Assembly: GCA_020057115.1 (NCBI GenBank)
Contig: JAGVGJ010000001.1
Coordinates: forward strand, 12,164 to 76,163
Source of the DNA: Candidatus Omnitrophota bacterium
Lineage (GTDB): Bacteria > Omnitrophota > Gorgyraeia > 2-01-FULL-45-10
DNA length: 64,000 bases
Direction of reading: 5' to 3'
A program made the position numbers and the translations under genes. Positions 30,110 to 51,000 of the stretch are shown here, one piece after another; position 1 is the first letter of the stretch; the number at the start of each line of letters is the position of its first letter. Under the pieces are notes generated by a model that saw only the letters and a program-made list of their open reading frames with translations, was not told where the DNA came from and ran no database searches.

Positions 30110-30206
30110 TTGTAAACCCTCCGTTTTGCTGTTGTTTCAAGATATAGCTTAAGTTTATGAAGGCATGATTATAGCACCTCGAGAGCCGGGAGGTCAATAC
30201 TTTTAT

Positions 30207-31739
30207 ATGAGTAAAAAGGGACTTATAAAGTCTACAGGCGTAATATCGTTGGCCACGGCTTTAAGCAGGGTGCTGGGGTTCGTCCGGGATATAGTCATAG
30301 CCAATTATTTCGGCACGGCTATATATGCCCAGGCCTTTGTGGTGGCCTTCAGGATCCCGAACCTCATGAGGGATCTTGTAGGGGAGGGCGCGGCTAACGC
30401 GGCATTTGTGCCGGTCCTTACCGAAGAGCTTACAAAGAAGGGTAAGGGCGACTTCTTTAAGCTCGCGCAGGTGATATTAAATCTCCTCTTCTGGACGCTT
30501 CTTGTCATGACAGCCATAGGCATGTTTGCCTCTCCTTTGATAGTGAGGCTGATGGCTCCCGGCTTCCTGGCGGATCAAGCGAAGTTCGATGTGACTGTCC
30601 AGCTTACGAGGATGCTCTTCCCGTTCCTGGTTCTTGTGGGGCTATGGGCCTATGCTATGGGGGTCCTGAATACGCTCGGCCATTTCGCGGCCCCGGCCTT
30701 CGGCTCATGCCTGCTCAATATATCAATGATACTGTGCGCGATGTGGTTCGGCGAGAATGTCTTCGGACTTTCCGCAGGCGTCCTGGCCGGAGGGACGCTC
30801 CAGCTATTCATGCAATTCCCGCCGCTTTACGCGCACGGATGGAAGATGCGCTTAACCGGCGACTTTTCTCATCCTAAGGCCAGGAAGGTGGGGGCTCTTC
30901 TGTTGCCGCGCGCCCTCGGCGCGTGCGTATACCAGATAAACGTATTCATATCCACGATACTTGCTTCATTATCGTCCATAGTGGGTGATGGCGCAGTCGC
31001 GGCTCTCTATTATGCCAATAGGATATGGCAGCTTCCTCTGGCGATATTCGGCATCGCGCTCGCCCAGGCTATATTGCCGGCCATGTCAAGGCATGTGGCT
31101 TTGAATGACCACGGCAAGCTGAAGGACATGCTCTCATTCTCGCTCAATATCTTATTTTTTATATTAATACCATCAACGGTCGGGCTTATAATGCTGGGCG
31201 AGCCGATCACTAAAGTGCTGCTCCAGAGAGGGCTATTTACTGCCTATTCGACGCAGATAACCGCATCGGCCCTTGTCTTCTACTCGCTCGGGCTCGTGGC
31301 CTGCGGAGGCATAAAGATCCTCGTCAGCGCCTTCTATTCGATGCATGATACCATGACGCCGCTTAAATGCGCAGGGTGGTCGCTTGCGGCGAACATATTA
31401 TTCAACATAGCATTGATGTATCCGCTAAAAGTAGGCGGTCTTGCGCTGGCAACCTCAGCATCTGCCGTGGTCAATTTCGTCATGCTCTACATCATGCTCA
31501 GGAAGAAGATCGGGGATTTCGGGTCGAAGGGCATAGCCGACTCATTTTTAAGGGTCATGGTATCGTCGCTTGTAATGGCCGCAGCGCTGAAGATGCTCGC
31601 GCTGCGTTTTTCCGTTACAACAGCAGTCAATCTCGGTCTGGCCATAATAACAGGCCTGGCGGTATTTCTTCTCTCATCCTACCTGTTAAACGTAAAAGAG
31701 ATGAAGGACTTCCTCGGATGGGCATTAAAGAGAAGGTAA
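30207..31739 (+). CDS. murJ: Lipid II flippase MurJ/MviN
   Basis: About 510 aa with 14 TM helices and a typical MurJ N-terminus (GVISLATALSRVLGFVRD). Start set at ATG 30207 (MSKKGL...) rather than 30165. Confidence 0.85.
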   Translation: MSKKGLIKSTGVISLATALSRVLGFVRDIVIANYFGTAIYAQAFVVAFRIPNLMRDLVGEGAANAAFVPVLTEELTKKGKGDFFKLAQVILNLLFWTLLVMTAIGMFASPLIVRLMAPGFLADQAKFDVTVQLTRMLFPFLVLVGLWAYAMGVLNTLGHFAAPAFGSCLLNISMILCAMWFGENVFGLSAGVLAGGTLQLFMQFPPLYAHGWKMRLTGDFSHPKARKVGALLLPRALGACVYQINVFISTILASLSSIVGDGAVAALYYANRIWQLPLAIFGIALAQAILPAMSRHVALNDHGKLKDMLSFSLNILFFILIPSTVGLIMLGEPITKVLLQRGLFTAYSTQITASALVFYSLGLVACGGIKILVSAFYSMHDTMTPLKCAGWSLAANILFNIALMYPLKVGGLALATSASAVVNFVMLYIMLRKKIGDFGSKGIADSFLRVMVSSLVMAAALKMLALRFSVTTAVNLGLAIITGLAVFLLSSYLLNVKEMKDFLGWALKRR

Positions 31740-33417: not shown

Positions 33418-34540
33418 ATGATACAAGAGCTGAATAATGACATAAAACTGAGCGAAGAGAAGCTGAAAGAGCTCAGAGGTTATCTTTGACGTCGATAACA
33501 AGCTAAAGAGGATAACTGTCCTTGAGGAAGAGATCTCCAGGCCAGATTTTTGGAGCAATGAAACACGTTCCAAAGAGGTCATCAGAGAGCTCAAATACTT
33601 AAAAGCCATAGCAGAGCCGTTCTCAAAGCTCACAAGTGATCTTAAAGATATAAAAGAGATAGTCTCCATAGCCGAATCCGGCGACGCGGAATCACTGAAA
33701 CACTTCAAAGAAGAGCTTTCCAGGATAAAACTCAAGATAGATGATATAGAGTTCAGAAGCCTTCTGGGAGAGGAAGCGGATAGTTGTAATGCAATAATGA
33801 GTATCAATGCCGGAGCCGGGGGCACCGAATCATGCGATTGGGCGGGTATGTTGCTGAGGATGTATACCAAGTGGGCCGAGGCAAGAGGATGCGAGATCGA
33901 AAGGATAGACCAGCTCGCAGGTGAAGAGGCGGGCATAAAGAATGTCACGGTGCTCATAAAAGGCGATTATGCTTACGGGTACCTCAAGAGCGAGTCAGGC
34001 GTCCATCGTCTTGTCAGGATCTCGCCTTTCGATTCAAATAAGAGGCGCCACACTTCATTTGCTTCCGTTGATGTCATACCCGAAGTGTCCGACGATATCC
34101 AGATAGACGTAAAGGAACAGGATCTAAAGATAGACACTTATCGCGCCGGAGGCAAGGGCGGCCAGCATGTCAATAAGACCGACTCCGCTGTCAGGATAAC
34201 GCATATTCCTTCAGGCATAGTCGTCCAGTGCCAGAACGAAAGATCGCAGGGCAAGAACAAGGCGATGGCGTTTAAGCTGTTGAGGGCGAAACTTTATGAG
34301 AAAGAGCGTCTTGCCAAAGAGAAGCTGGTGGCTAGCGCTTACGATTCAAAGAAGGAGATCGCCTGGGGCAGCCAGATAAGGTCTTATGTGCTCCATCCGT
34401 ATTCCATGGTAAAGGACCACAGGACAGGCTGTGAGACAGGGAATGCCGAGGCGGTCCTTGAAGGGAAGATAGACGCGTTCATCGAGGCATATTTAAAAAG
34501 GGGCAAGGGTCCGGGGTCTGGGGTCCAGGAGAAGGGGTAG
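33418..34540 (+). CDS. prfB: Peptide chain release factor 2 with a programmed +1 ribosomal frameshift: join(33418..33486, 33488..34540)
   Basis: Frame 0 encodes [23 protein letters not shown] and ends at the canonical AGAGG-UAU-CUU-UGA-C frameshift site (SD-like plus CUU UGA C). The +1 frame continues DVDNKLK... through the SPF and GGQ motifs. The GC-repeat at 34501-34530 encodes the C-terminal [12 protein letters not shown]. Confidence 0.85.
34501..34530. repeat. GC-rich oligo-repeat at the 3' end of prfB (in-frame)
   Basis: gggcaagggtccggggtctggggtccagga. Confidence 0.75.
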
Positions 34541-34541
34541 A

Positions 34542-37289
34542 ATGTTAAATTTCATAATGAAGAAGATAATAGGGACGCAGAACGAGAGGGCCTTGAGGCC
34601 TTTAAGGCCTGTCGTCGATAAGATAAATTCTTTTGAGCCGGCGATATCGAAGCTGTCTGACTCCGGACTTCGCGCCAAGACAGACGAGTTCAGAACTAAG
34701 ATAGCCGCGCGGCATAAGGAGATGGCCGACGAGCTAAAGGAGATGGAGGCGGCGTATCTGGCCTCTACAGCGCCCACCGAAAAGGAGAGGCTGAAGCGAA
34801 AACTCCGGGATATGAAGAACCGGATATTCGATGACGTCCTGCCGGAAGCTTTTGCGGTCGTAAGGGAGGTCTCGAAGCGCGTCAATAAGATGAGGCACTT
34901 CGACGTCCAGCTCATGGGCGGAATGGTCCTCCACCAGGGCAAGATATCCGAGATGGCTACGGGCGAGGGAAAGACTCTTGTGGCCACGCTTCCGGTGTAT
35001 CTTAATGCCCTGACCGGCGAAGGTGTCCATGTAGTCACGGTTAACGATTACCTGGCCAAGAGAGATCGCAATTGGATGGGGCCGATATATGAATTCTTGG
35101 GGCTTACGGTCGGCGTGATACAGCATGATATTGGACAAGAGGCCCGCAAGCAGGCATATGGCGCGGATATAACTTACGGGACGAATAACGAATTCGGGTT
35201 CGACTATCTTCGGGACAACATGGTGGTCCGCAAAGAGGATATGGTCCAAAGGGGATTGAATTATGCGATCGTTGACGAGGTCGATTCGATACTTGTCGAT
35301 GAGGCGAGGACGCCGCTTATCATATCAGGCCCTGCGGAAGAATCTACGGATAAGTATTACATCATAAACAAGATAGTCCCGCGCCTTAAAGGTAAGATAA
35401 CAACCGACAAGGAAGAGATCGAAGCGAAGTATAAGGGGTTGGACCTTGAAAAAGGCATAGATTATGTGGTGAACGAAAAGAACCATACGGTGAACCTGAC
35501 CGAAGAGGGCGTCACCAAATGCCAGGACATGATAGGGGTGAAGAACCTTTATGATGACATACAATCCGAATGGGAGCACCACATAAGGCAGGCCTTAAGG
35601 GCGCATGTCCTATACAAGAAAGACGTAGATTACGTTGTTAAGGACGGCGAGGTTATGATAGTCGATGAATTCACCGGCCGTCTTATGCCGGGAAGGCGGT
35701 GGTCCGACGGTCTTCATCAGGCTGTGGAGGCGAAGGAGGGAGTTAAGATAGAGCGGGAGAACCAGACCCTCGCCACTATAACATTCCAGAACTACTTCAG
35801 GATGTACCGCAAGCTCGCAGGCATGACCGGAACCGCCGAAACCGAAGCTGTCGAGTTCGAGAAGATATACGGGCTCGATGTCGTAGTGATGCCTACAAAC
35901 CAGCCTATGAAGAGGTCAAATTTCCCGGATATCATATATAAGACGGAAAGGGAGAAGTTCAATGCCGTAGTCTCCGAAATAGCGGAACTCCATAAGGTCG
36001 GAAGGCCGGCCCTTGTCGGAACTATCTCGATCGAAAAATCGGAGATGCTCTCCAGCTTATTAAAACGCAGCGGTATTCCTCACCATGTCTTGAACGCAAA
36101 ATATCATGAAATGGAAGCCGAGATCATAGCCAATGCCGGGCAGAAACATACCATAACTATCGCCACTAACATGGCGGGTCGCGGCACTGACATAGTCCTG
36201 GGCGAGGGTATAGCCGCGCTCGGGGGGCTTCATGTCCTCGGGACGGAGCGGCACGAATCTCGCCGCATCGATAATCAGCTGCGCGGCCGTTCGGGCCGCC
36301 AGGGTGATCCTGGCTCGAGCAGATTCTACCTATCCCTCGAAGACGATCTCATGAGGATATTCGGCTCCGACAAGATCAAGAATGTCATGGAAAGGCTCGG
36401 CATGGAGGAAGGCCAGGATATCCAGCATCCCTTCATAACCAGGGCCATAGGCACAGCCCAGAAGCGCGTTGAGCAGCATAACTTTGATATAAGAAAACAT
36501 ATCCTCGAGTATGACAATGTCATGAACCGCCAGAGGGAGGTCATATACGACGAAAGGCGCAAGATACTCTTCGGAGAGGACCTGAAAGGTTATATACATG
36601 ATGTCATGGAAGAGGTCATTGAAGGCGCGCTCGACACCTATCTGAATGAAAAACTGCGGTTCGATGAGTGGGATTTTGAGGGCTTAAGACAGTATCTTGA
36701 GCTGGGATTTGGCATCAAGGCTAAAGACCTCAACCTCGAAGAGACGCCCAGGCCCGGTATAATGGATGCGATATTGGAGAGGATGAAGGCCACATATGAA
36801 TTGAAGGAAAAGTCTCTCGGAGGACCGATGATGAGGCATCTTGAGAGGATGATACTCCTCCAGGTGGTGGATTCAAGATGGAAAGACCATCTTTATGCCA
36901 TGGACAGCCTTAGAGAGGGCATAGGATTGAGGGCATACGGCCAGCGCGACCCATTGATAGAATATCAGCATGAAGGATACGGCATGTTCATGGATATGAT
37001 AGACAGGATCAAAGAAGAGACTCTCGAATATCTCTTTCGGGTCCAGACCGTTCAAGAAGAGGCAAAGTCCGCAGTATTCGATTTTTCCAAACAGAACCTG
37101 GTCCACGAAGAGAAGAGCCAGTTCCAGGATGTGCCCTCCGAAGAAGGCGGCCAGGCGGCAATGTCTTATGCCGGGCAATTGCCGGAACAAAAGGCAGAGA
37201 CTTATAAGAGGGAAGAGCCCAAGGTGGGCCGTAATGACCCCTGTCCGTGCGGCAGCGGCAAGAAATATAAGAAGTGTTGCGGCGAATGA
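34542..37289 (+). CDS. secA: Preprotein translocase ATPase SecA
   Basis: 915 aa with DEAD-like motor domains and a C-terminal zinc-binding [14 protein letters not shown]. Confidence 0.95.
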
Positions 37290-38869
37290 ACAAAAAAGAA
37301 GATGTCTCAAATTTAATATTTCGCATGGCCCTTGCGTCGGTATCGGCGCTCCTCCTGGTCCTCGCATTTCCAGGCTTCAACCTCTCGTTCCTGGCCTGGA
37401 TAGGCATGGTGCCGCTATTCTTCGCCCTTGAAGGCAAGAAGGCGGGGGAGGCTTTTCTTATAGCATACACGGCCGGCATAGTATTCTTTCTCGGGACGGT
37501 CTGGTGGCTTATCCACGTCACGCTCCCCGGCATGATAGTCCTGGTCCTGTATCTCGGGCTATTCTTCGGAGGATTCGGGGCCATAGCTTCGCTCGGCCTC
37601 TCGCCCTCAAAAAATATCTCCAACCGCGCGCTCGATTATATGGCGCTATTCCTCATACCGGCCGCCTGGGTTACCTGTGAGTGGATGCGATCGACCCTAT
37701 TCAGCGGCTTCGGATGGGTGGCCTTAGGCTATTCGCAGAGCTCAAGCCTTCCGGTCATCCAGATAGCCGACATAACCGGCGTTTACGGAGTAAGTTTTAT
37801 AATAGTGATGGTAAACATAGCGATATTCATAACCCTAAAGAGCCAGCAGGAGAGGGGCGCCACTATAGATATCTCCATGGCGCTCGCGATAATCATCGTA
37901 TTTATCTCGCTCGGCTACGGTTATTTTAGGATGAACAATATATTTACGGGTGAGAAGATAAAGGTAAGCGTTATACAGGGGAACATACCCCAGGACAAGA
38001 AATGGGATTCCGCCTTCAGATCATTCATCATGGACAAATACGAGGACCTGACGAAGAAGGCCGTCAAGCGGAAGGTCGATCTCGTGGTCTGGCCGGAGAC
38101 ATCTGTGCCGGGCTTTGTCGAATCCGAGCCGGACCTGTTCGAAAGAATACAAAAGCTTGCTATTGATGGCAATACCCCGCTTCTTGTCGGCACTTTGAGA
38201 GAGGACAGGAATGTGAGAGAAAGGTATTATAATAGCGCAAGCCTTTTCCTGGGGAACGGGAATATTGAGGCGACATACGATAAGATACATCTCGTGCCTT
38301 TCGGAGAATATATACCGCTTAAAAAAGTATTTTCATTCGTAGAAAAGATCGCTCCCGCTCCTATCGGGGACGTGACTAATGGTAAGGATCATACGGTATT
38401 CTCCTTTATCGTAAAGAGAGTGTCGAAAGACGAGGATGTCACGTTAAAGCTCACAAAGAAGATCAAGTTCTCCTGCCTGGTATGCTTCGAGGATATGTTC
38501 CCGGAGATAGCAAGAGAGTTCGTCAAGAGGGGCGCCGGTTTTCTTGTCAATATAACTAATGACGCCTGGTATAAGAAGACCTCCGCCGCGTGGCAGCATG
38601 CGCAAGGCTCCATCTTCAGGGCTGTAGAGAACAGGGTCGCGGTCGTTCGCGCGACCAATACAGGCATATCCTGTTTTATAGACCAGAAGGGCAGGGTCAC
38701 GAGCGTCATCCAGGACAATAAAGAGAGCCTCTTCGTCGACGGCTATGGGCAGGACGATGTATTGATAACAAATATCCGAACATTTTACAATCTCTACGGC
38801 GATGTATTTGCATACATATGCATATTTGCGACGATATTATTACTATATGCAGCCATATTGTTAAAATAG
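37274..38869 (+). CDS. lnt: Apolipoprotein N-acyltransferase
   Basis: N-terminal polytopic domain plus a C-terminal CN-hydrolase domain with catalytic E...K...C (CLVCFED). Confidence 0.85.
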
Positions 38870-38890: not shown

Positions 38891-38918
38891 TTGCAACTTG
38901 TTTAATAAGTGATATACT
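38891..38918 (+). promoter_or_regulatory. Sigma70-like promoter (TTGCAA-16-TATACT) upstream of the hypothetical gene at 38996
   Basis: -35 at 38891-38896 and -10 at 38913-38918. Confidence 0.4.
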
Positions 38919-38995
38919 AATAATGAAGAAGGAATTTTTTTTGGGGATAAAGTAAATAGTTTTAAAAAGTTATTAGAAATCCGAAGAGGAAGAAA

Positions 38996-39358
38996 ATGAA
39001 ACTCAAAACGATCTTCACATTAATAGGAGTGATGGCTCTGACCATTACGATGGCCAGTCCTGCTTCCTTCTGCAACGGCGCGGGGGCGTCTAACAGCGCC
39101 AACTACGTGTCCGATCTGCAGAACAAGCAGGAGTCCGTCACTTCTATTAAAGAAGATACGGTAAATATACAGAAGGAGCTTTTAAGGAAGATCGATGAGA
39201 CAGGGGTGGTATGTTCCCCGGGAGGGCAGTTTTCCAAACTGGAAGTTTCCGGCAAGGAGCTTATCGAGCTTGTCCCGCCTAGCGCAAGGATATATCTGGA
39301 AGCTTGCAGGATGTCAGGCACTCTGACGCCGCAGGCGGACACCAAGAAAAAGAAGTAA
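38996..39358 (+). CDS. Hypothetical secreted protein (signal peptide), 120 aa
   Basis: N-terminal hydrophobic signal and a Lys-rich C-terminus. No recognisable domain. Confidence 0.4.
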   Translation: MKLKTIFTLIGVMALTITMASPASFCNGAGASNSANYVSDLQNKQESVTSIKEDTVNIQKELLRKIDETGVVCSPGGQFSKLEVSGKELIELVPPSARIYLEACRMSGTLTPQADTKKKK

Positions 39359-39365
39359 TCCCGCC

Positions 39366-39863
39366 CTATTTTTTCTTCAGCATCTTATTATTCTCTGATA
39401 TCGCTTTTACTGCTATGAGGCTCAAGTTGTTTATATTGGCCTTGGTGAGCTCTATGACATTTATTGTGGCAGGGTCCTTCATCTCCGAGCGCGCTTCGTC
39501 GAGATAGATGGAATCTTTTTCGCAATATTTTTTGATGAACTGAAGCCAGCCGTTGAAGACATCCACCATATCTTTATTTATCCTGCCCTCGGACGATACG
39601 GCGATCTTGATCATCTTAAAATATGCCTCGATAGTGGTGAGGGCATAGGTGTTTATCTCGTAGACGCGCTCAAGCGTCCTCATCTCGTTGTTCTTCGTAT
39701 TCTTGATCATGTCAGGCATTTTGGCGCCGAGCTCTGCCATCGACGTGCGCAGGCCGTCAAGTTCTTTTATATGGTCCTGGCCAAAAGAGAGGGATGCTCC
39801 AAAGGTTATAAGGAGCAGGGATGAGATTATAAAAGTTTTTATAAATCTATCGATCGTATTCAC
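39366..39863 (-). CDS. Hypothetical secreted/periplasmic protein, 165 aa
   Basis: Signal-peptide-like N-terminus. No recognisable motif. Confidence 0.45.
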   Translation of the reverse strand: MNTIDRFIKTFIISSLLLITFGASLSFGQDHIKELDGLRTSMAELGAKMPDMIKNTKNNEMRTLERVYEINTYALTTIEAYFKMIKIAVSSEGRINKDMVDVFNGWLQFIKKYCEKDSIYLDEARSEMKDPATINVIELTKANINNLSLIAVKAISENNKMLKKK

Positions 39864-39927
39864 GATTTATAGTCCAAGTATAGCATAAGAACGCATTTTT
39901 TCAACATTAAGATTAAATATTAATAGA

Positions 39928-40398
39928 ATGCGCGCGCCCCGCAAGTTGAATATGTTAATATTATATGCTATACTTCATAATATAATTATGAGACAAAAAC
40001 TCGCTATTTTGCTTATATCGGTCGCATTATTTTCAAGCCTGAAATTCACAAAACAAGAGCTCTCCTTAAAACTCCCGCCACCCGGCGGAGATGAAATATC
40101 CAGCTACGAAAAACGCTTTTCCAGGCTTAAAGATATCATTCCTCCCGGAGCTGTTGCAGGTTATGTCGCGGATATGCCCAACAAGGATGTGGTATCAGAC
40201 GCCAGAGCGCTTGCGCGGTATTTTGTTGCGCAGTATGCTTTGGCGCCGGTTATTGTCGAAAATACCATAGACCGATCTATAGTTATCGGTGATTTTTACG
40301 GTGACCCGTCTGTTTTAAATAAAGACGCCATTTCTGAGCTTATGCCGCTAATGGACTTTGGAGACGGGGTCTTTCTCTTTGCTAGAAAGGAAAGATGA
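39928..40398 (+). CDS. Hypothetical exported/membrane-anchored protein, first gene of a 3-gene overlapping operon
   Basis: Hydrophobic N-terminal segment. Stop overlaps the next start (ATGA). Confidence 0.4.
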   Translation: MRAPRKLNMLILYAILHNIIMRQKLAILLISVALFSSLKFTKQELSLKLPPPGGDEISSYEKRFSRLKDIIPPGAVAGYVADMPNKDVVSDARALARYFVAQYALAPVIVENTIDRSIVIGDFYGDPSVLNKDAISELMPLMDFGDGVFLFARKER

Positions 40399-41792
40399 TA
40401 CTTCCTTTATTGAATTCGCTGCTTGACCCTATCATGGCAGGCCTTATTTTGGCGGCTCTTTTGTGGCCGAAACAGAAAGTCTCCGGTCCCGATTGTCTTA
40501 TAATAGCTTTTCTTGCAGCCGGATGCGGCTTAGGCATTATATCACTTATCTATTTTATCTGGCTTGCGGCCGCATGGCCCTTCAGCCTGTTCATATTATC
40601 GGAGATAGCTATCCTTGCGGCGCTCGGTTGGCTTATCTATCACGCCTATAAAAATAAAAAACTGCCGCAATACGTTGGTTTTGACACGGATATATTGCCG
40701 AAGACAAAGATAGATATGTTTGCCGCAGCAGCCCTTATTGTAATGATATGCGCATCAGTCGTATTCTATGTCCATTATTCGTTCAGGATGCCGCATGGCG
40801 AATGGGATGCCTGGGCCATATGGAACATGCGCGCCAGATTCCTGTTCAGGGAAGGATCGATATTTAAAAGCACTTTTTCGCCGGCTCTTTTTTGGTCGCA
40901 TCCGGACTATCCTCTTCTTCTGCCAGCTTCTATAGTTAGATTTTGGAATTACATAGGCAAGGAAACGCAGCTTGTCCCGGCCGTCATGAGCGCGGTATTC
41001 ACATTTTCAACCGCGGGACTAGTCTTCTCTTCGCTGTTCAAATTGCGCGGCATGCGCGAGGCGCTACTTGGAGCGATAGTCCTTTTAGGGACGCAGGTAT
41101 TCATGATGACAGGTGCTTCGCAATATGCCGATGTTCCGCTGTCATATTTCATCCTTGCGACATTGGTCCTATTCTGCCTTCACGACAGGTTGGAGATTCC
41201 GGCCCGCGGATTTTTAATCCTTTCCGGTGTAATGGCAGGCCTGGCGGGTTGGACAAAGAACGAAGGGTTATTATTCTTAATGCTTGTGGTTTTTGTCCGC
41301 TTCGTGACGGTCGCGATATTCAATGGCCGGAAAAAAGCCCTCGTTGAGCTTTTAATATTTTCTTCCGGCGCGCTGCCTGTTCTGGCTGTTATCATATATT
41401 TTAAGCTGCGTTTTGCGCCTCCCAATGATCTGTTTTCGCAGGGACCGGCCGCGATAATGGTGAAACTGACGGATCTATCGATCTATTATCCTATTCTTAA
41501 AGTAGTATGGGGTAGGCTTCTGGGGTTTGGGGCTCCTATTCTTGGGGTGATACCCCTCTTAGCGGCATACCTTTCTCTGGCGGGTGTTAGGGTCGAAAAG
41601 AAAGATCTTCCTATGGTAGCTGTCTGGCTTGGCGTATCAGGCATGATGTTGTTATTATATATCGGCGTGTATGCGATCAGTCCTTATAATGCAGCATGGT
41701 TAATAAGCACATCCATAGACCGCCTGATATCGCAACTCTGGCCGAGCACAGTATTCATGGTCTTTCTTATAATTCGGAATGACGCTTCATGA
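40395..41792 (+). CDS. Polytopic membrane protein, possible GT-C-fold glycosyltransferase
   Basis: 465 aa with about 11 predicted TM helices and periplasmic loops with aromatic-rich motifs. Translationally coupled to its neighbours. Confidence 0.5.
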   Translation: MILPLLNSLLDPIMAGLILAALLWPKQKVSGPDCLIIAFLAAGCGLGIISLIYFIWLAAAWPFSLFILSEIAILAALGWLIYHAYKNKKLPQYVGFDTDILPKTKIDMFAAAALIVMICASVVFYVHYSFRMPHGEWDAWAIWNMRARFLFREGSIFKSTFSPALFWSHPDYPLLLPASIVRFWNYIGKETQLVPAVMSAVFTFSTAGLVFSSLFKLRGMREALLGAIVLLGTQVFMMTGASQYADVPLSYFILATLVLFCLHDRLEIPARGFLILSGVMAGLAGWTKNEGLLFLMLVVFVRFVTVAIFNGRKKALVELLIFSSGALPVLAVIIYFKLRFAPPNDLFSQGPAAIMVKLTDLSIYYPILKVVWGRLLGFGAPILGVIPLLAAYLSLAGVRVEKKDLPMVAVWLGVSGMMLLLYIGVYAISPYNAAWLISTSIDRLISQLWPSTVFMVFLIIRNDAS

Positions 41793-43315
41793 CCGAATCT
41801 CACAAGATCCAGGTATCCATCTTTATAATTATCATAGCCCTGTCAGGTTTTGTCGTTTATCTAAATTCGCTTCCCGGTCCATTTCTGTGGGATGACATAA
41901 ATCTTATAAGCAATAATCCATATATAGGTAATCTGGCAAGCGCGCCCAAGATATTATTTGGCGATATCGGTTCCGGCTCCCGCCAGAATTACGGATTTTA
42001 CAGGCCGCTACAGATATTCAGCTATCTCGTAGACTATCATATCTGGGGCTCCGAGGTGATGGGATACCATTTAACGGGGGTCCTGTTGCATATACTGGTC
42101 GCGCTTTCGGTGTTCTGGCTGGCGCTCGTATTATTTAAGGACGAGATACTCTCTTTCTTCGCGGGTCTGTTATACGCGGTCCATCCCATACACACCGAGG
42201 CCGTGGCATATATATCCGGCAGGACTGATCCGCTCTCGGCGCTATTTTTGCTCGTTGCAGCTGTCTTTTATATAAGAGCCATAGAAACCCCCAGGATACT
42301 GTTTTATGCGCTGACATTGTTCAGCTTTTTTTTAGCGCTCCTTTCAAGAGAATACAGCCTGATATTTCCTGTTCTTATGCTCGTCTATCATTACGCTTTC
42401 AGGAAGAGGGTAGATGCCAAATTTTTTGTTTCTGTGATCATAGTGTCGTTGCTCTACCTGGTATTGAGAGGGTCTGTCATGACATTCGGCCTCTCGCAGT
42501 TGGCCAAGAACCCATCGCCGATAGAAAGGGTCCCGGGATTCTTTGCGGCGATCGCCGAGTATTGCAGGCTTATCGTGTTGCCGCTTGATATCCACATGGC
42601 ATATGGGCAGAAGACATTCTATTTTACCGATATTCAGGCGCTGATAGGCCTTGCGATATTTGCGGGGATGCTGGTATTTATGCTCAAGTCTAAAGATAAA
42701 CTTGTGAAATTTTCCATCGCGTGGTTTTTGGTGGCGCTTGTTCCAGTTTCGAACATACTGCCGCAGTTGAATGCGGTCATGGCCGCGCACTGGCTCTATC
42801 TCCCGTCGATAGGGATATTCATCCTTGCGGGGAAGGGTCTGTCCGTCTTATATAATAACTCCAATACAAAAAAAATCAGCTTGATGCTGTTGGCATTTCT
42901 CCTGATATTTTATTCCATCCTTACGATAGAACAGAACAACTATTGGAATGACCCGAAGGCTTTCTTCGAAAGGACGATTAAATACGCGCCGGAAAGTTAC
43001 AGCTGGAAGTTATATTATCATCTTGCCAATGAGCGCTTGAAAGTCGGAAAGACCAAAGAAGCGATAGCCTTATACAAGAAATCATTATCCCTGAACGGTC
43101 AGTTTGCCGATACCTATAACAAGCTGGGTGAGGCTTATGCCGAGACAGGGGACGTGGATAGGGCTATATTTGTCTATAAAAAAGCTTTATGGATCGATCC
43201 GTCATTCACAGCGGCATACAAAAATCTTGCTGTGATATATCGCAAGCTTGGGCGCGCCGACCTCGCCGTGAAATATGATGACCTTGCCGGAAACCTCACG
43301 CAATACGCGGAATAA
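41789..43315 (+). CDS. TMTC/PMT-like membrane protein with C-terminal TPR repeats (GT-C-type, DUF1736-like)
   Basis: WDD motif in the first loop (PFLWDDINLI), multiple TM helices, and C-terminal TPR units (AIALYKKSLSLNGQFADTYNKLGEAYAETGD...). Confidence 0.6.
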   Translation: MTESHKIQVSIFIIIIALSGFVVYLNSLPGPFLWDDINLISNNPYIGNLASAPKILFGDIGSGSRQNYGFYRPLQIFSYLVDYHIWGSEVMGYHLTGVLLHILVALSVFWLALVLFKDEILSFFAGLLYAVHPIHTEAVAYISGRTDPLSALFLLVAAVFYIRAIETPRILFYALTLFSFFLALLSREYSLIFPVLMLVYHYAFRKRVDAKFFVSVIIVSLLYLVLRGSVMTFGLSQLAKNPSPIERVPGFFAAIAEYCRLIVLPLDIHMAYGQKTFYFTDIQALIGLAIFAGMLVFMLKSKDKLVKFSIAWFLVALVPVSNILPQLNAVMAAHWLYLPSIGIFILAGKGLSVLYNNSNTKKISLMLLAFLLIFYSILTIEQNNYWNDPKAFFERTIKYAPESYSWKLYYHLANERLKVGKTKEAIALYKKSLSLNGQFADTYNKLGEAYAETGDVDRAIFVYKKALWIDPSFTAAYKNLAVIYRKLGRADLAVKYDDLAGNLTQYAE

Positions 43316-43332: not shown

Positions 43333-44865
43333 TCACCCCCATAGATTCCTGTCCAGGCTCCTGTACGAAATCGCCTCCGAGACATGGTGTGCTTCGATGA
43401 TGTCTTTACCGTCAAGGTCTGCGATCGTGCGGGAGACTTTAAGTATCTTGTCATAGGCCCTTGCGGATATACCAAGCTCCAGTATCGCAAGTTTTAAGAG
43501 CTCTTCACCTTCCTTGTCCATTATGCAATACTTTTCAAGCTCTTTAGACTCAAGCCTTGAATTAAAATGCGCGGCGGCATCTTTATAACGATCTCTCTGG
43601 AGCTCGCGCGCCTTGTCGACGCGCTTTCTTATCTCGGAGGACGGCTCGCCGCACCTCTTTGAGGTCAGATGGTCCAAGTTTAGCCGCGGCACCTCGAGAT
43701 GTATGTCTATCCGGTCTAGTAGCGGCCCGGATATCTTCGATAGGTATCTCTGTATCTGCACAGGCGTGCAGTGGCATTCGCGTTTTGGGTCGGTAAAATA
43801 TCCGCAAGGACAGGGGTTCATGGCAGAAACGAGCATGAACTTGGAAGGGTATGTCTCGCTGCCTGATACCCGCGTCACCGTCATCGCGCCTTCCTCAAGA
43901 GGCTGCCTTAATACTTCAAGGACATTTCTTTTAAATTCCGGAAGCTCGTCGAGAAAAAGGACGCCGTTATGGGCAAGAGATATCTCACCCGGCGTAGGGT
44001 AAGTGCCGCCGCCCACAAGGGCCGCGTCGGAGATCGTGTGGTGCGGAGAGCGGAAGGGCCTAGTCCCTATAAGCCCTTTACCCTGGATGAGGTTCCCGGC
44101 AATAGAATGTATCTTGGATGTTTCCAGGGCCTCTTCAAATGTCATCTCCGATAATATGGTAGGAAGCCTCTTTGCCATCATGCTTTTACCGGAACCCGGA
44201 GGGCCTATCAACAGGACGTTGTGGCCTCCGGCGGCTGCGACCTCAAGGCCGCGCTTCACATGCTCCTGGCCCTTGACATCATTAAAATCGATCTTATGTT
44301 TGGAATTTCGCTTAAAGACCTGCTCGGCGCTTGATTCGACAGGCTTGATATCCGTTACCTTATTAAGGAAGTCCACGACCTCTTTTAATGTGGCTGCAGG
44401 ATATGCCTCTACATCCTTTACCAAGGCGGCTTCTTTCGAATTATCTTTGGGGATCACGAACTTTGTCTTGTTCAGTTTCTTCAGGCCTATAGCCATGGGG
44501 AGGACGCCCCTTACGGGTTTTAACCGTCCGTCGAGCGATAGTTCGCCCACAAAAACGAAATCCTGGAGGTCCGTACGGTCAAGGAGCCCTTCCTGGGAAA
44601 GGACCGATAATGCAATGGGGAGGTCAAATGAAGCGCCTTCCTTCTTTATGCTCGCAGGCGCGAGGTTGATGGTCAGTTTCTTGGCGGGGAATGACAGGCC
44701 GGAATTCTTCATGGCGGCTTTTATCCTTTCGCGGGATTCTTTTATAGCTGTGTCAGGGAGCCCCACTATATTAAATGCAGGTAGTCCCGCTCCAATGTCA
44801 GCCTCGACCATGACTTCGTGGGTATCAAGGCCTATTACGCAACATGAATAGATGCAAGAGATCAT
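43333..44865 (-). CDS. comM: Mg-chelatase-like AAA+ ATPase YifB/ComM
   Basis: 510 aa with Walker A GPPGSGKS and a ChlI-type C-terminal region. Confidence 0.9.
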   Translation of the reverse strand: MISCIYSCCVIGLDTHEVMVEADIGAGLPAFNIVGLPDTAIKESRERIKAAMKNSGLSFPAKKLTINLAPASIKKEGASFDLPIALSVLSQEGLLDRTDLQDFVFVGELSLDGRLKPVRGVLPMAIGLKKLNKTKFVIPKDNSKEAALVKDVEAYPAATLKEVVDFLNKVTDIKPVESSAEQVFKRNSKHKIDFNDVKGQEHVKRGLEVAAAGGHNVLLIGPPGSGKSMMAKRLPTILSEMTFEEALETSKIHSIAGNLIQGKGLIGTRPFRSPHHTISDAALVGGGTYPTPGEISLAHNGVLFLDELPEFKRNVLEVLRQPLEEGAMTVTRVSGSETYPSKFMLVSAMNPCPCGYFTDPKRECHCTPVQIQRYLSKISGPLLDRIDIHLEVPRLNLDHLTSKRCGEPSSEIRKRVDKARELQRDRYKDAAAHFNSRLESKELEKYCIMDKEGEELLKLAILELGISARAYDKILKVSRTIADLDGKDIIEAHHVSEAISYRSLDRNLWG

Positions 44866-46746: not shown

Positions 46747-47187
46747 TTAAAATCCTATCTTATTACGGCTATTAAATCTCTCAAGCACTTTCGATGCTTC
46801 TTTTTCGCCGCCTTGCTTCCACGCCTCGTTTATCATCACTAGCATCTTGGTCGTTTTTGAATCTACCACCCACTTTGCCCCCAAAATAAGAGTAGCAACG
46901 AGCAGCTGCAGGAAGTATCTCGGGGTAAGGAATGAGAGCGTGAATGATATAATAGCCAGCACCAGATATATGTTTATGCGTTTCATGAAATTACCCTTTC
47001 TGTTTTTAAGTTTCGTATCTTTTAGGAATTCTTCTACGGAATCGAATGCGCACACGGCTTTCTCCAGGCAGCTAGGACAGCTTGCCAGGTGCCCGGCCAG
47101 CTCTTCTCTTTTTTTGCCGCGCAAGGCTCCGCTAAGATAATCCGCCACCTCTATGTCGCTCGGGTGCTTTATTCCGGTATAGGTCAT
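46747..47187 (-). CDS. Zinc-finger (ZAS-like) single-TM anti-sigma factor
   Basis: HxxxCxxC motif (HLASCPSCLEKAVCAF) and a central TM helix. Strong SD AGGGGGA. ATG overlaps the sigma gene stop (ATGA). Confidence 0.6.
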   Translation of the reverse strand: MTYTGIKHPSDIEVADYLSGALRGKKREELAGHLASCPSCLEKAVCAFDSVEEFLKDTKLKNRKGNFMKRINIYLVLAIISFTLSFLTPRYFLQLLVATLILGAKWVVDSKTTKMLVMINEAWKQGGEKEASKVLERFNSRNKIGF

Positions 47188-47849
47188 TTTTGTCCCCCTA
47201 CTATATAAGACGCTAAAAACGGGCAAATTGTTGCAAAAAAAGTTAAAAAACATTTTAAAGCGGCGCGCAGCCTCTCTTTTCCCCGTCGGACGTGGCTTGA
47301 AACAGTGTTCTTAGGCATGCGGGTCATCTTCGCTATCTCGTGGTATTTCTTGCCGTGCAGCAGGTGCAGTTTGATCACCAATTTTTCCACGCTTGGCAAG
47401 TCCTCTATGGACTGGTCTATCTTTTTTGACAGCTCCTGCCTGGAGAGTTCGTCTGCGGGCACAGAGCCGCCGGCAAAAAGGCTAGAGATCAAGTCGACCT
47501 CATCCCCCGTATCCGTATGCGGCAGTATCTCATATCGAACCCCGCGCCTGGCCTTCCTCAAATGCGACACAGCCGCATTCTGCGCGAGCATCGAGATCCA
47601 GCAGGGGAGGCTTGAGATATTGTCGAGAGAAGCCATCTTATCGCTGCGCCACATCGAAGAGAGCGCATCCTGCAGGATATCATCGACGTCATGCGATGTG
47701 GTCTCAAAGCCGCACCGCCTCAGGCGTTTTTCGATCGATATCCGCATGAGGCGGGAATACTTTTTCGTGAAGGCTTCCCAAGCCGCGATATCCCGCGCGG
47801 CACAGCCTTCGATAATGGCCTTATCGTCTTCAAAACGTTCGGTAGGCAT
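47184..47849 (-). CDS. ECF-type RNA polymerase sigma-70 factor
   Basis: Region 2 and region 4 signatures (...LQDALSSMW..., ...LHGKKYHEIAKMTRMPKNTVSSHVRRGKERL). Start taken at the internal ATG (MPTERFED). Confidence 0.8.
   Translation of the reverse strand: MPTERFEDDKAIIEGCAARDIAAWEAFTKKYSRLMRISIEKRLRRCGFETTSHDVDDILQDALSSMWRSDKMASLDNISSLPCWISMLAQNAAVSHLRKARRGVRYEILPHTDTGDEVDLISSLFAGGSVPADELSRQELSKKIDQSIEDLPSVEKLVIKLHLLHGKKYHEIAKMTRMPKNTVSSHVRRGKERLRAALKCFLTFFATICPFLASYIVGGQK
47206..47235 (-). promoter_or_regulatory. ECF-sigma-type promoter (TGCAAC-N17-CGTCTTA), copy 2, inside the 3' end of the sigma gene just upstream of the anti-sigma gene
   Basis: Minus-strand -35 from plus 47230-47235 and -10 from plus 47206-47212. 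39/43 identical to copy 1. Confidence 0.45.
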
Positions 47850-48021
47850 TCCATAGAAGATATCATCTATATGTAAAAATGTCAATTATATTTTATTTTT
47901 AATCAAACAATGGAACCGGCTATTTTTATCCGGGATGTTGCCTATTTAGATTATTATGATATAATTATAACGCTAATCATAAGGACAGTCCATGAACCTT
48001 TTCCACAGATAAAATTTTTGT

Positions 48022-48070: not shown

Positions 48071-51000
48071 ATGGCAGGACCCTACAGCAGGCTATTCGAA
48101 TTCACCAGAGACGGCATATACAGCTACACGTTTGCCGACGGGAAGATACTATCCGCGAACCACGGTTTTATCAGGATCCTTGACCTCGACTGCAAGCCAC
48201 CCGAAGTCGAAGGAAGGCTCCTTAAAGACGTGATGACCTATGTCGAAAAGGAGGGTACGGTCCGGAGGCTCCTGGAAGAGAAAGGAGAACTTCATAACTA
48301 TGAATACCACTTTAAGACGCTGAAGGGCGAGGACAGGTGGGTCATCTACGATTCATTCCTTTCCGTGGATCCGGTGACCGGCGAGAGAGTGGTAGAGACG
48401 ATAGTAAAAGATATAACCGACCGTAAGAAGAAGGAAGATGAGGCCAGGCGGTACCGCGCCCATCTCGAGGAGCTTGTAAAGGAGCGCATAGAAGAGTTGA
48501 AAGCCCTCAATGAACAGTTGAGGCGCGAAGTCGCGGAGCGCAAGGAGGCGGAGGAGAGGCTTGCCAAGATAAACAGCTGCTTCCTGAAATTCGGTTCCGA
48601 CTCGCTTGAGAATATAAAGCTGTTGACAGCCCTCTTGGGCGAAACTATGGGCGCGACATGCGCCCTTTATAACCGGCTGGAAGAGGGCATGCTATGCTCT
48701 ATAGGGCAATGGAACACCCCTTCCGATTATAACGCTATCGATAAACCCGAAGGGCATTTATGCTATGACGTTATAAGGCACGGTACCGACATACCTTTCA
48801 TAGTAAATAATCTTCCGGGAACGCCTTATGCGGCTACAGATTCCAATGTAGCCAGATATAACCTGCGCACTTATGTCGGCGTGGCTGTAAAGTCCGGCGG
48901 CAGGTACATAGGCTCGCTTTGCGCTGTTTATCAGAAAGACGTCATCCTTACGGAAGACGATAAGAAGCTGATAGGGTTGATCGCCACAGCCGTGGGCATA
49001 GAGGAAGAGAGATTGAGGATGGAGGGCGACATACTTGAGTCGAAAGAGTATCTCTCCAAGATCATAAATTCTATCGGCGATCCCGTGTTCGTAAAAGACA
49101 GGCAGCATCGCCTGATACTGGTAAATGACGCCGAATGCCGTCTTGCAGGCCATTTGAGAGAAGATGTTACAGGAAAGACGGATTATGACTTCTTCCCGAA
49201 AGAGCAGGTCGACATATTCTGGAAGAAGGATGAGATGGTGTTCGAGACCGGCGAAGAGAATATAAACGAGGAGACGATCACCGATGCCCAAGGCGTGACT
49301 CACACTATCATCACGAAGAAGACGCGCTATATCGACCCGGAGGGTAATAAATTCATAGTCGGCATCATAAGGGATATAACAGACCGCAAGGCGACCGAAG
49401 AACAACTCCAACAGAACTACGATATCCAGAAAGCCGTAAACTCTCTCCTCAACCTTTCGCTAAGAGACATGCCTTTAGAGGAATTCCTTAAAAATACGCT
49501 CGACCTCATAATGTCCATCCCCAGGCTTTCGCTTGAATCGCGCGGCGGCATATTTCTGACGGAAGATCATTCTGATACCCTGAGGCTAAAGGTGCATAAC
49601 GGCCTTACCGAGCAGATACAGAAGGCATGCGGGAGCGTCCCATTCGGCAAATGTCTCTGCGGCAAGGCGGCGCTGACAAAAAAGACGCAGTTTGCCGCAT
49701 CTATCGACGAGCGTCATGAGACAACTTATGAAGGCATCATCCCTCACGGCCATTACTGCGTTCCGGTGCTATGGGCAGACAAGGTCCTCGGAGTAATAAA
49801 CTTTTACTTGAAAGAGGGGCATCCCTATAAAAAGAGTGAAGAAGATTTTCTGGTTGCCGTAGCTAACACCCTGGCCGGCGTCATAGAGCGCAAGCGCGTG
49901 GAGGAAGAACTAAAGAAGAGCGAGGCGAGTCTCGCGGAAGCCCAGAGGATAGCGCGCCTGGGGAACTGGGAGTGGGATATAAAGGCCAATAGCATAAAAT
50001 GGTCGGCCGAGGTATACCGCATATTCGGGAGAGCGCCGTCTGATTTTAACGGCACGCTCGAAGCATTCCTGGAATATATTCATCCCGCCGACAGAGGATT
50101 CGTTAAAGAAGCGTTGGATGACGCGCTGCACAAGCAAGAGAACTACTCCATAGACCACAGCATCCTGCTGCCGAACGCAGTGGAGAGGATAGTCCACGAG
50201 CAGGGAGAGATCACCTATGACGGGAACGGCGAGCCCGTGCGCATGGTAGGGACTGTCAATGACATAACCGAACGAAAGATCATGGAGGGTGAGCTCAGGA
50301 AGCATCGTGACCACCTTGAGGACTTGGTCAAGCAGCGCGCCGCCCAGATCATCGAGGTCAATGAGAGCCTCCAGCGCGAAGTCGCCGAGCGTAAGCGCGT
50401 CGAAGAGGCGTTGAGGGAGTCGGGGGAGAATTACAAGACCCTGTTCGAGCATTCTCCTATAGCGCTCTTCCAGGAAGATTGCTCCGGCATGAAGAAGTAT
50501 ATAGACAGTCTTAAGGCGACCAGCGGCGCTGACCTGAAGAAATATTTTGAAGACCATCCCGAAGTCTTAAAGGAGTGCATAGAAGCGATAAAGATAGCAG
50601 ATGCCAATAAGCAGGCCTTAATGCTTTTCGACGCGAGGGATAAAGAAGAGCTTTACAGGGCGGTCAAAAATATACTCATCGCCGATGCTTATAGCGATTT
50701 TGCGGAGGCGATCGTAGCTTCTAGCGAAGGAAAGTATGCTCTCGAACACGAGACCAGCATACATACGCTTACCGGAGCCAAGAAATATTGCACTGTCAAG
50801 ATATCGACCGTTGCGGGAAGCGAGACGACATGGGCGAAAGTATTGATATCTATGGTCGATATAACGGAGCGCAAGCTTGTAGAGGAAGCGCTCGAGATAT
50901 CGGAGGCAAACTACCGCGCCATATTCGATACGGCCAATGACGCCATATTCGTCTTTGATATTAAGACAGGGGTTATAATCGACGCCAACAGGAAGGGCTG

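Follow-up and report, generated by a model that had tools for sequence, protein, structure and literature searches.

Between the genes lnt and comM of a Candidatus Omnitrophota bacterium lie five genes, here called ORF1 to ORF5 (open reading frames; Table 1). They are part of a stretch of 64,000 nucleotides (nt) of contig JAGVGJ010000001.1, which we analysed as a whole and refer to as the window; loci fetched from relatives are designated L001 and so on. ORF1, ORF2 and ORF3 encode small proteins with a single N-terminal hydrophobic segment each, and ORF4 and ORF5 encode large polytopic membrane proteins. A first interpretation, made from the letters of the DNA (the sequence-only reading), had taken both large proteins for glycosyltransferases of the C fold (GT-C) and had joined the five genes into one glycosylation system, inserted as an accessory element, with the adjacent small proteins as possible substrates. 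The list of open reading frames gives the five genes exactly where that reading had placed them, with lnt on one side and minus-strand comM on the other, and the GT-C assignment of both proteins is backed by profile and model; the single system and the substrates find no such backing. We consider it probable that the locus holds two independent GT-C units facing the periplasm, ORF3-ORF4 and ORF5, joined as an ORF3-ORF4-ORF5 operon in a variable slot between ORF2 and comM.

The operon is tightly packed. The stop codon of ORF4 and the start codon of ORF5 overlap as ATGA at 41789-41792, just as first described, and ORF3 and ORF4 also overlap by 4 nt (40395-40398), a point absent from the earlier description. 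Public start calls differ, ORF4 being given 443 amino acids (aa) by NCBI and 452 aa by JGI, and ORF3 136 aa by JGI and 148 aa by NCBI. The shorter ORF4 calls skip the start at 40395 that overlaps the ORF3 stop. We favour this start (465 aa) from sequence comparison, since residues 1-25 are kept across the family and overlap or abutment of the ORF3 stop with the ORF4 start is usual elsewhere. For ORF3, the ATG at 39988 (136 aa) is most likely the true start, because the JGI call begins there, because the promoter-like site upstream of the operon falls within the longer reading, and because a stop codon occurs in the upstream extension of the orthologous DNA of L002. ORF1 to ORF3 gave no Pfam or NCBIfam domain above threshold, all matches of ORF2 lying below it, in line with their first description as small proteins with a signal-type N-terminus and no recognisable domain. 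No paralogue of ORF4 or ORF5 was found elsewhere in the window.

Table 1. Genes, domains and candidate sites of the locus (window coordinates)
Feature	Coordinates	Strand	Description
lnt	37274-38869		flank of the cluster
ORF1	38996-39358	+	120 aa; signal peptide, then conserved segment NG[AT]GASxSANYVSDLQNKQESV
ORF2	39366-39863	-	165 aa; signal peptide; backbone gene adjoining comM
Divergent intergenic region	39864-39987		AT-rich, GC ~0.40; candidate promoter sites from a consensus scan
Candidate promoter-like site for ORF2	39904-39877	-	consensus match only
Candidate promoter-like site for the ORF3-ORF4-ORF5 operon	39946-39974	+	consensus match only
ORF3	39988-40398 (alternative start 39928, 156 aa)	+	136 aa; N-terminal anchor or signal and periplasmic domain of ~100 aa
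ORF4	40395-41792	+	465 aa; predicted GT-C with ArnT/PMT_2-like core; 3 extra N-terminal transmembrane helices
ORF4 predicted catalytic Asp138	40806-40808	+	motif PHGxWDAW
ORF5, entire	41789-43315	+	508 aa
ORF5 membrane domain	41789-42952 (aa 1-388)	+	predicted GT-C core of 11 transmembrane helices, TMTC-like
ORF5 W34-D35-D36	41888-41896	+	just after the first transmembrane helix
ORF5 C-terminal periplasmic TPR domain	42953-43315 (aa 389-508)	+	three TPRs and capping helices
comM	43333-44865	-	flank of the cluster

Two predicted GT-C enzymes

Both large proteins have the features of the GT-C_A fold: they are polytopic, their N-terminal module consists of the first transmembrane (TM) helix and a long first external loop with juxtamembrane helices, and a conserved acidic residue opens that loop (D138 in ORF4, D35/D36 in ORF5). 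ORF4 is, by its profile match and predicted structure, a GT-C glycosyltransferase fold with an ArnT/PMT_2-like core. Its only Pfam match is PMT_2 (29.0 bits, gathering score 26.1), and it has no NCBIfam match whatsoever, the ArnT model included. The AlphaFold2 model, built with 40 homologues, has a mean predicted local distance difference test score (pLDDT) of 88.9 and a predicted template modelling score (pTM) of 0.92, and its third-ranked structural match is Gpi14. All 40 aligned sequences have D138, which belongs to the motif PHGxWDAW and comes directly after the first core TM helix; other invariant motifs are D171-Y172-P173, Q243/D246, W286-K288-N289-E290-G291 and R443. Three additional N-terminal TM helices (residues 1-86) are kept within the family and, together with Lys/Arg-rich loops at 23-30 and 87-104, predict a periplasmic N-terminus. 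Only six residues follow the last TM helix of the chain, which therefore lacks a soluble domain. Neither ORF4 nor ORF5 matched PF02366 or MIR in Pfam, and no beta-rich loop domain appears in either AlphaFold2 model; precomputed PF02366 matches exist for a few ORF4 homologues.

ORF5 is likewise predicted to adopt a GT-C fold (AlphaFold2 pLDDT 92.1, pTM 0.91). Model helices and loop charges give 11 TM helices, an N-terminus inside and periplasmic tetratricopeptide repeats (TPRs). The WDD motif and the C-terminal TPR array singled out by the sequence-only reading are both there: W34-D35-D36 lies in the first periplasmic loop, and Pfam TPR_1 covers three stretches (E 1.2e-17, residues ~405-507) in a region, modelled as helices 389-507, whose PDB matches are consensus TPR proteins and the TPR of OGT. 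Among 43 homologues D36 is invariant and D35 is at least 90% conserved. The conserved residues that could be assigned to a loop are all periplasmic, namely W34-D35-D36, Y71-R72-P73, AVHPIHTEAV at 130-139 (P133 invariant, H132 and H135-V139 at least 90% conserved), E188 and H334-W335-L336-Y337-P339. WDD, YRP and AVHPIHTEAV, with the 11 TM helices and periplasmic TPRs, agree with the proposed likeness to TMTC/PMT-type enzymes. Of the Pfam families suggested at that time as a check, PMT_2 was found in ORF4 and DUF1736 failed to appear in ORF5 at E<=1, nor is it among the precomputed Pfam domains of 120 listed homologues. The fifth external loop (EL5) of the ORF5 family reads A-E-H-W-L-Y-L-P and keeps His334 in at least 90% of sequences, where the TMTC motif 'AERV' has an Arg. 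As DUF1736 is missing and a His replaces this Arg, we call ORF5 TMTC-like and not a TMTC member.

Distribution of the two units and their genomic setting

A word-indexed homologue search with ORF3 recovered ORF3 alone, and the family emerged through an exhaustive HMMER search and a pattern scan. It comprises at least 815 clusters at 50% identity (E<=0.001), nearly all of 130-150 aa. Its motifs are E-x-R-F, GY, YYLTQYALAP, (V/I)GNF and DFGNGV, and conservation sits in those of the folded domain (Q82, Y83, P87, G58, Y59, G127); the alignment contains no invariant or near-invariant Ser or Thr. ORF3 has no Pfam match and no relative in the PDB by sequence, and its profile gave chance matches only against the PDB. 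We considered whether ORF3 is the C-terminal soluble domain of single-chain GT-Cs, split off as a separate protein. This was rejected, as an ORF3 profile built on 38 sequences, compared by hhalign with the C-terminal regions of L009_524 and L007_447 (a single sequence each), gave probabilities of ~0.1%.

The ORF3 alignment, scanned against one genome per species, matched 139 genomes, from which 80 loci were fetched. Most are from Acidobacteriota; the others come from Syntrophaceae and other delta-proteobacteria, Myxococcales, Omnitrophota, Nitrospirae, Methylomirabilota, Gemmatimonadota, Binatia and Chitinophagales, and two ORF3-ORF4 contigs are binned to archaeal metagenome-assembled genomes (MAGs). 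In 78 of the 80 loci the next gene downstream, on the same strand, is an ORF4 homologue, the other two loci being cut by a contig edge, and a candidate ORF4 start lies at offset -4, -1 or 0 from the ORF3 stop in 58/70 loci. The same picture is obtained from the other side: in the ORF4-anchored loci L001, L007/L008 and L009/L010, a frame of ~137-141 aa overlaps the GT-C start by 4 nt, and in alignment these small proteins are 29-36% identical to ORF3. ORF3 is an obligate partner of ORF4. In a Deltaproteobacteria MAG the two are fused in frame (L083, 4884-6800, JACQEL010000075.1), an ORF3-like part being followed by a linker of ~30 residues and an ORF4-like part. This fusion requires a periplasmic ORF4 N-terminus and so fits the predicted topology. 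One in-frame stop interrupts it after ~525 codons, perhaps through a sequencing error or because the gene is a pseudogene. A second apparent fusion, L074_4676_6700, was judged, by coordinate and frame arithmetic only, to result from a long frame that overlaps ORF3 in a different register, which leaves L083 as the only in-frame case.

Neighbours of the ORF3-ORF4 module are conserved only as lineage-restricted synteny within Acidobacteria, among them a radical-SAM-like gene and a large family of repeated ORFs. Six loci have a GT2 gene close to the module, in at least two of them immediately downstream, and in P0178 (749 aa, from a JGI metagenome contig of 3481 bp) an ORF4-like GT-C core continues into a Glycos_transf_2 domain at the C-terminus (residues 507-664). 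This single instance could be a gene-calling artefact; with the nearby GT2 genes it weakly hints at a lipid-linked donor that would be made by a GT2 enzyme. Other GT-C types are also seen in the vicinity. A TMEM260-like gene lies 5' of the module in L007, and a third GT-C-like family, absent from the window, occurs in L002 (5219-6661) and L009 (7436-9010), with 480-524 aa, 37% mutual identity, an HDEA motif in the first loop, a C-terminal soluble region and only a sub-threshold PMT_2 match (E 0.012); in these other Omnitrophota its gene follows ORF5 (L002) or the ORF3-ORF4 module (L009). Different GT-C types sometimes cluster in this way, which is not a general rule.

ORF5 has another distribution. 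A gene like it occurs within 5 kb of ORF3-ORF4 in only 2 of the 80 loci, and elsewhere the family is found solitary or in tandem arrays of paralogues, with no conserved neighbours; several paralogues are often present on the same Omnitrophota contig. It is a separate family, expanded in Omnitrophota and normally standing alone. Tandem arrays of 2-3 genes with widely different TPR counts were observed in L004 (10001-13548) and L006 (6258-12159; 558, 834 and 558 aa), and such variation would be consistent with a diversification of acceptor specificity. L001 (49% identity), where all five genes are likewise close to lnt, has its ORF5 orthologue and its ORF3-ORF4 pair in convergent orientation. 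L002 (60% identity) is more telling. At 3580-3675 it has a mini-ORF of 31 codons, MRQKLATLLLVSQLWSSAVFMAFLVVRNDKT, made of the beginning of ORF3 joined in frame to the final ~22 codons of ORF4, and this mini-ORF continues to overlap the start of the ORF5 orthologue. Deletion of the ORF3-ORF4 module has thus left a clean scar. An ancestor of L002 therefore had the arrangement of the window and later lost ORF3-ORF4 while keeping ORF5, so that the overlap by 4 nt that couples ORF4 to ORF5 is a juxtaposition specific to this lineage. ORF3-ORF4 and ORF5 are evolutionarily independent units with separate distributions.

The surroundings are those of an ordinary chromosome: leuS, comEC, a BamD-like gene, lptE, holA, murJ, uvrC, prfB, secA and lnt precede the cluster, and comM, a UPF0102 (yraN-like) gene, spoVG and GGDEF genes follow it. 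Candidatus Omnitrophota is the source of most named homologues. Orthologues of ORF1 and ORF2 are present in L001 and L002 at 63-72% identity (68-70% for ORF2). A metagenome scan with ORF2 alone gave nothing, and its alignment-based repeat gave seven loci, L091-L097, with ORF2 orthologues at 48-59% and no ORF3, ORF4 or ORF5; they adjoin comM in L091 and L093-L096. ORF1 orthologues (39-48%) adjoin lnt in L091 and L092, with no adjacent GT-C gene. L091 reads lnt, ORF1, ORF2, an IS200-like transposase gene and comM; L092 reads secA, lnt, ORF1, ORF2 and then unrelated genes; in L094 and L095 comM lies ~110-145 nt from ORF2; in L093 the place of ORF3-5 is taken by a gene for a 782-aa protein with MFS and spermine-synthase-like matches. 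Conversely, L003 has an ORF5 orthologue directly after lnt and neither ORF1 nor ORF2. ORF1 and ORF2 are lineage-specific exported proteins of an lnt-ORF1-ORF2-comM backbone and have no consistent link to GT-C genes. Since relatives carry this backbone without ORF3-5, the accessory insertion proposed by the sequence-only reading applies to ORF3-5, whose slot varies among relatives, and not to ORF1-2. At an early stage, the linkage of lnt and ORF5 in L001-L003 had led us to see no insertion at all, a view that the lnt-ORF1-ORF2-comM arrangements in L091-L096 overturned. The slot between ORF2 and comM, which in relatives is empty or taken up by a transposase gene or by unrelated genes, looks like a hotspot of gene gain.

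The transposase gene of L091 (Y1_Tnp, 1104-1583) stands between comM and ORF2, in the position that ORF3-5 occupy in the window. Two other identities were considered for ORF1 and dropped. It is not a lipoprotein, as Cys26 is not conserved (Ala in L001) and is not a lipobox cysteine, and it is not a pilin, as its FTLIG-like segment (KTIFTLIG) is not kept as a prepilin motif in orthologues.

Some further features of the window deserve mention. prfB (33418-34540, +) begins with a frame of 23 codons ending in '...LRGYL' and a stop (33418-33489), and its main body, with RF-1/PCRF domains at 33797-34540, continues in another frame; this looks like the classical programmed +1 frameshift. The longest uvrC frame overlaps the end of murJ (30165-31739) by ~370 nt (31367-31739), and its real start is probably internal, because the GIY-YIG domain begins at residue 131. 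A signalling protein of 1598 aa with several PAS domains, GAF, GGDEF and HD (HD_5) is encoded at 48071-52867 (+), and 5' of it lie a sigma-70 family factor (47184-47885, -) and a 168-aa ORF with no family match (46747-47253, -).

Proposed mechanism and alternative readings

GT-C enzymes build or decorate cell envelopes through lipid A modification, protein O- and N-glycosylation, and arabinan and mannan synthesis. We hypothesize that ORF3 and ORF4, made together from overlapping genes, would assemble in the inner membrane as a 1:1 complex. ORF4 would bind a polyprenyl-phosphate sugar and, by means of D138, pass a single sugar on to an acceptor of the envelope at the periplasmic face. The part of ORF3 would be that of an auxiliary subunit which stabilises ORF4 or positions the acceptor, much as Pbn1/PIG-X does for Gpi14/PIG-M. 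A glycolipid or glycan seems a somewhat more likely acceptor than a protein, although our confidence in this is low; it is favoured by the ArnT-like core, by the fact that no protein-binding domain is present and by hosts that are mostly diderm. ORF5 would work alone, its TPRs selecting periplasmic or exported proteins and D35/D36 catalysing their O-glycosylation from a polyprenyl-phosphate sugar. This role is suggested by what has been proposed for the TMTCs and shown genetically for Pseudomonas TfpW.

Limited literature searches turned up no description of the ORF3-ORF4 module, and this two-gene module appears to be so far undescribed and to be the new element of the region. More tentatively, we propose that it represents a widespread, undescribed class of heterodimeric prokaryotic GT-C, in which ORF3 is the obligatory subunit and the pair modifies an envelope molecule. 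The phyla concerned would be Acidobacteriota, Desulfobacterota, Myxococcota, Omnitrophota, Nitrospirota, Methylomirabilota, Gemmatimonadota, Binatota and Bacteroidota, and possibly archaea. The module offers a testable two-subunit bacterial GT-C hypothesis, its function being deduced here, and brings in no new principle. It is open to experiment, because members are found in Acidobacteriota, Myxococcales and other lineages that include cultured species.

ORF3 could also be the dedicated acceptor of ORF4, in a gene pair similar to pilA-tfpW. The strict adjacency of the two genes across phyla would be expected in that case as well, TfpW sets a precedent for a conserved neighbourhood of substrate and enzyme genes, and a variable, Pro-containing linker follows the ORF3 anchor. 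Even so, we find this unlikely. Conservation in ORF3 sits in the folded-domain motifs, with no Ser or Thr that is invariant or nearly so, stop-start overlap or abutment and the in-frame fusion suggest stoichiometric co-assembly with ORF4, and ORF4 has no soluble domain of its own, which a partner protein could supply. Strict co-inheritance, overlapping or abutting genes, one fusion and the absence of an invariant Ser/Thr fit a subunit better than a substrate.

The single protein-glycosylation system of the sequence-only reading, with ORF4 and ORF5 acting together on ORF1-3, draws on the translational coupling of ORF3, ORF4 and ORF5 in the window, on the presence of all five genes near lnt in L001 too, on the pilin substrate gene directly upstream of the GT-C/TPR enzyme in the TfpW system, and on a Ser-rich stretch after the ORF1 signal peptide. 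We regard it as very improbable, given that the two units seldom occur together (2 of 80 loci), are convergent and uncoupled in L001, and were separated by deletion in L002, which lost one and kept the other. Its substrates fare no better: ORF1 and ORF2 stand beside lnt and comM with no adjoining GT-C gene in relatives, L003 has ORF5 with neither of them, and ORF3 is better explained as a subunit. Least probable of all is that ORF4, ORF5 or both are inactive GT-C-fold scaffolds, like PIG-U in the GPI (glycosylphosphatidylinositol) transamidase, or TPR adaptors, as both families keep the loop 1 acidic residues (D138 and D36 invariant, D35 at least 90%) and many more invariant polar residues in periplasmic loops, and as the top structural matches of both proteins are active enzymes.

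Several points weigh against our preferred explanation, that of two independent GT-C units brought together in one operon. The complex of ORF3 with ORF4 is deduced from gene order and from one fusion with a later in-frame stop, and the transferase role of both families is read from sequences and models. The ORF3 profile resembles neither the two GT-C soluble regions nor any PDB entry, which leaves its role unconstrained. No gene for a polyprenyl-phosphate sugar synthase or flippase was seen in the annotated parts of the window (~1-14 and 21-56 kb; ~13 ORFs at 14.1-21.4 and 56.6-63.9 kb fall outside them). ORF5 is without two TMTC features, DUF1736 and the EL5 arginine. The archaeal ORF3-ORF4 loci, if their binning is real, speak against an acceptor specific to lipopolysaccharide. 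Finally, the 4-nt coupling of ORF4 to ORF5 could here reflect a functional link particular to this lineage.

Comparison with known systems

ORF5 shares with the eukaryotic TMTC1-4, O-mannosyltransferases of the GT-C/PMT clan (GT105 type), the 11 TM helices, the cytoplasmic N-terminus and the non-cytoplasmic C-terminal TPRs, as well as DD and YRP in loop 1 and a near-identical AVHPIHTE at the third TM helix and second external loop. TMTCs are characterised by a DD active site and the motif SHKSYRP, and human TMTC3 contains '...FAVHPIHT' (PMC7801869, Eisenhaber et al.); acidic residues at the start of loop 1 are critical for catalysis in related sugar transferases, and prokaryotic TMTC-like GT-C/TPR enzymes have already been noted (PMC7801869). 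ORF5 differs in that its fourth external loop has ~50 aa, compared with a DUF1736 region of ~75 aa in the loop between TM helices 7 and 8, that DUF1736 is not matched, that the EL5 Arg in contact with the donor phosphate is His334, and that it has only three TPRs. Since ORF5 is bacterial, a donor of the polyprenyl-phosphate type would be built on a lipid other than dolichol.

Among bacterial proteins studied by experiment, TfpW of Pseudomonas aeruginosa comes closest to ORF5 in architecture. It is a pilin D-arabinofuranosyl transferase, required for pilin glycosylation, and has 11 predicted TM helices, a periplasmic loop bearing a DDX motif, and C-terminal periplasmic TPRs; its gene lies directly downstream of the substrate gene pilA (bioRxiv 10.1101/2020.04.19.049825). 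Both are bacterial inner-membrane GT-C proteins with 11 TM helices, a DD-type motif and C-terminal periplasmic TPRs; the likeness is one of architecture, and ORF5 is preceded by ORF4 and ORF3 and has no pilin gene as neighbour. The Synechococcus pilin glycosyltransferase 'Ogt' was set aside as a comparison, being a GT41 enzyme and not a GT-C. There are many bacterial TMTC-like enzymes of the ORF5 kind, and we came across no functional study of any of them, with the exception of TfpW and its similar architecture. TPR domains of the ORF5 type suggest acceptor-specific protein glycosylation in uncultured phyla.

ArnT (GT83), the undecaprenyl-phosphate-L-Ara4N:lipid A transferase, has a C-terminal periplasmic domain. 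ORF4 resembles it in the PMT_2-type core and departs from it in its three extra N-terminal TM helices, in the lack of such a domain and in having ORF3 as a partner. The protein O-mannosyltransferases (PMTs, GT39) carry a MIR beta-trefoil domain in a luminal loop (PMC7759382), and neither ORF4 nor ORF5 shares MIR or the Pfam PMT N-terminal domain (PF02366) with them.

For ORF3-ORF4 the nearest parallel in layout is the GPI mannosyltransferase I, where the GT-C Gpi14/PIG-M forms a 1:1 heterodimer with the single-pass auxiliary Pbn1/PIG-X, described as essential (PMC12653191, PMC9306709). The likeness concerns layout only, a catalytic GT-C with a single-anchor auxiliary protein: ORF3, with ~135 aa and an N-terminal anchor, is much smaller than Pbn1, whose anchor is C-terminal. 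Nor does the pair belong to that enzyme, since the sole Pfam match of ORF4 is PMT_2 and the ORF3 profile has no PDB match. If our proposal is true, the catalytic-plus-auxiliary layout, documented among the GT-C enzymes compared here for the eukaryotic GPI mannosyltransferase I, would reach the prokaryotes.

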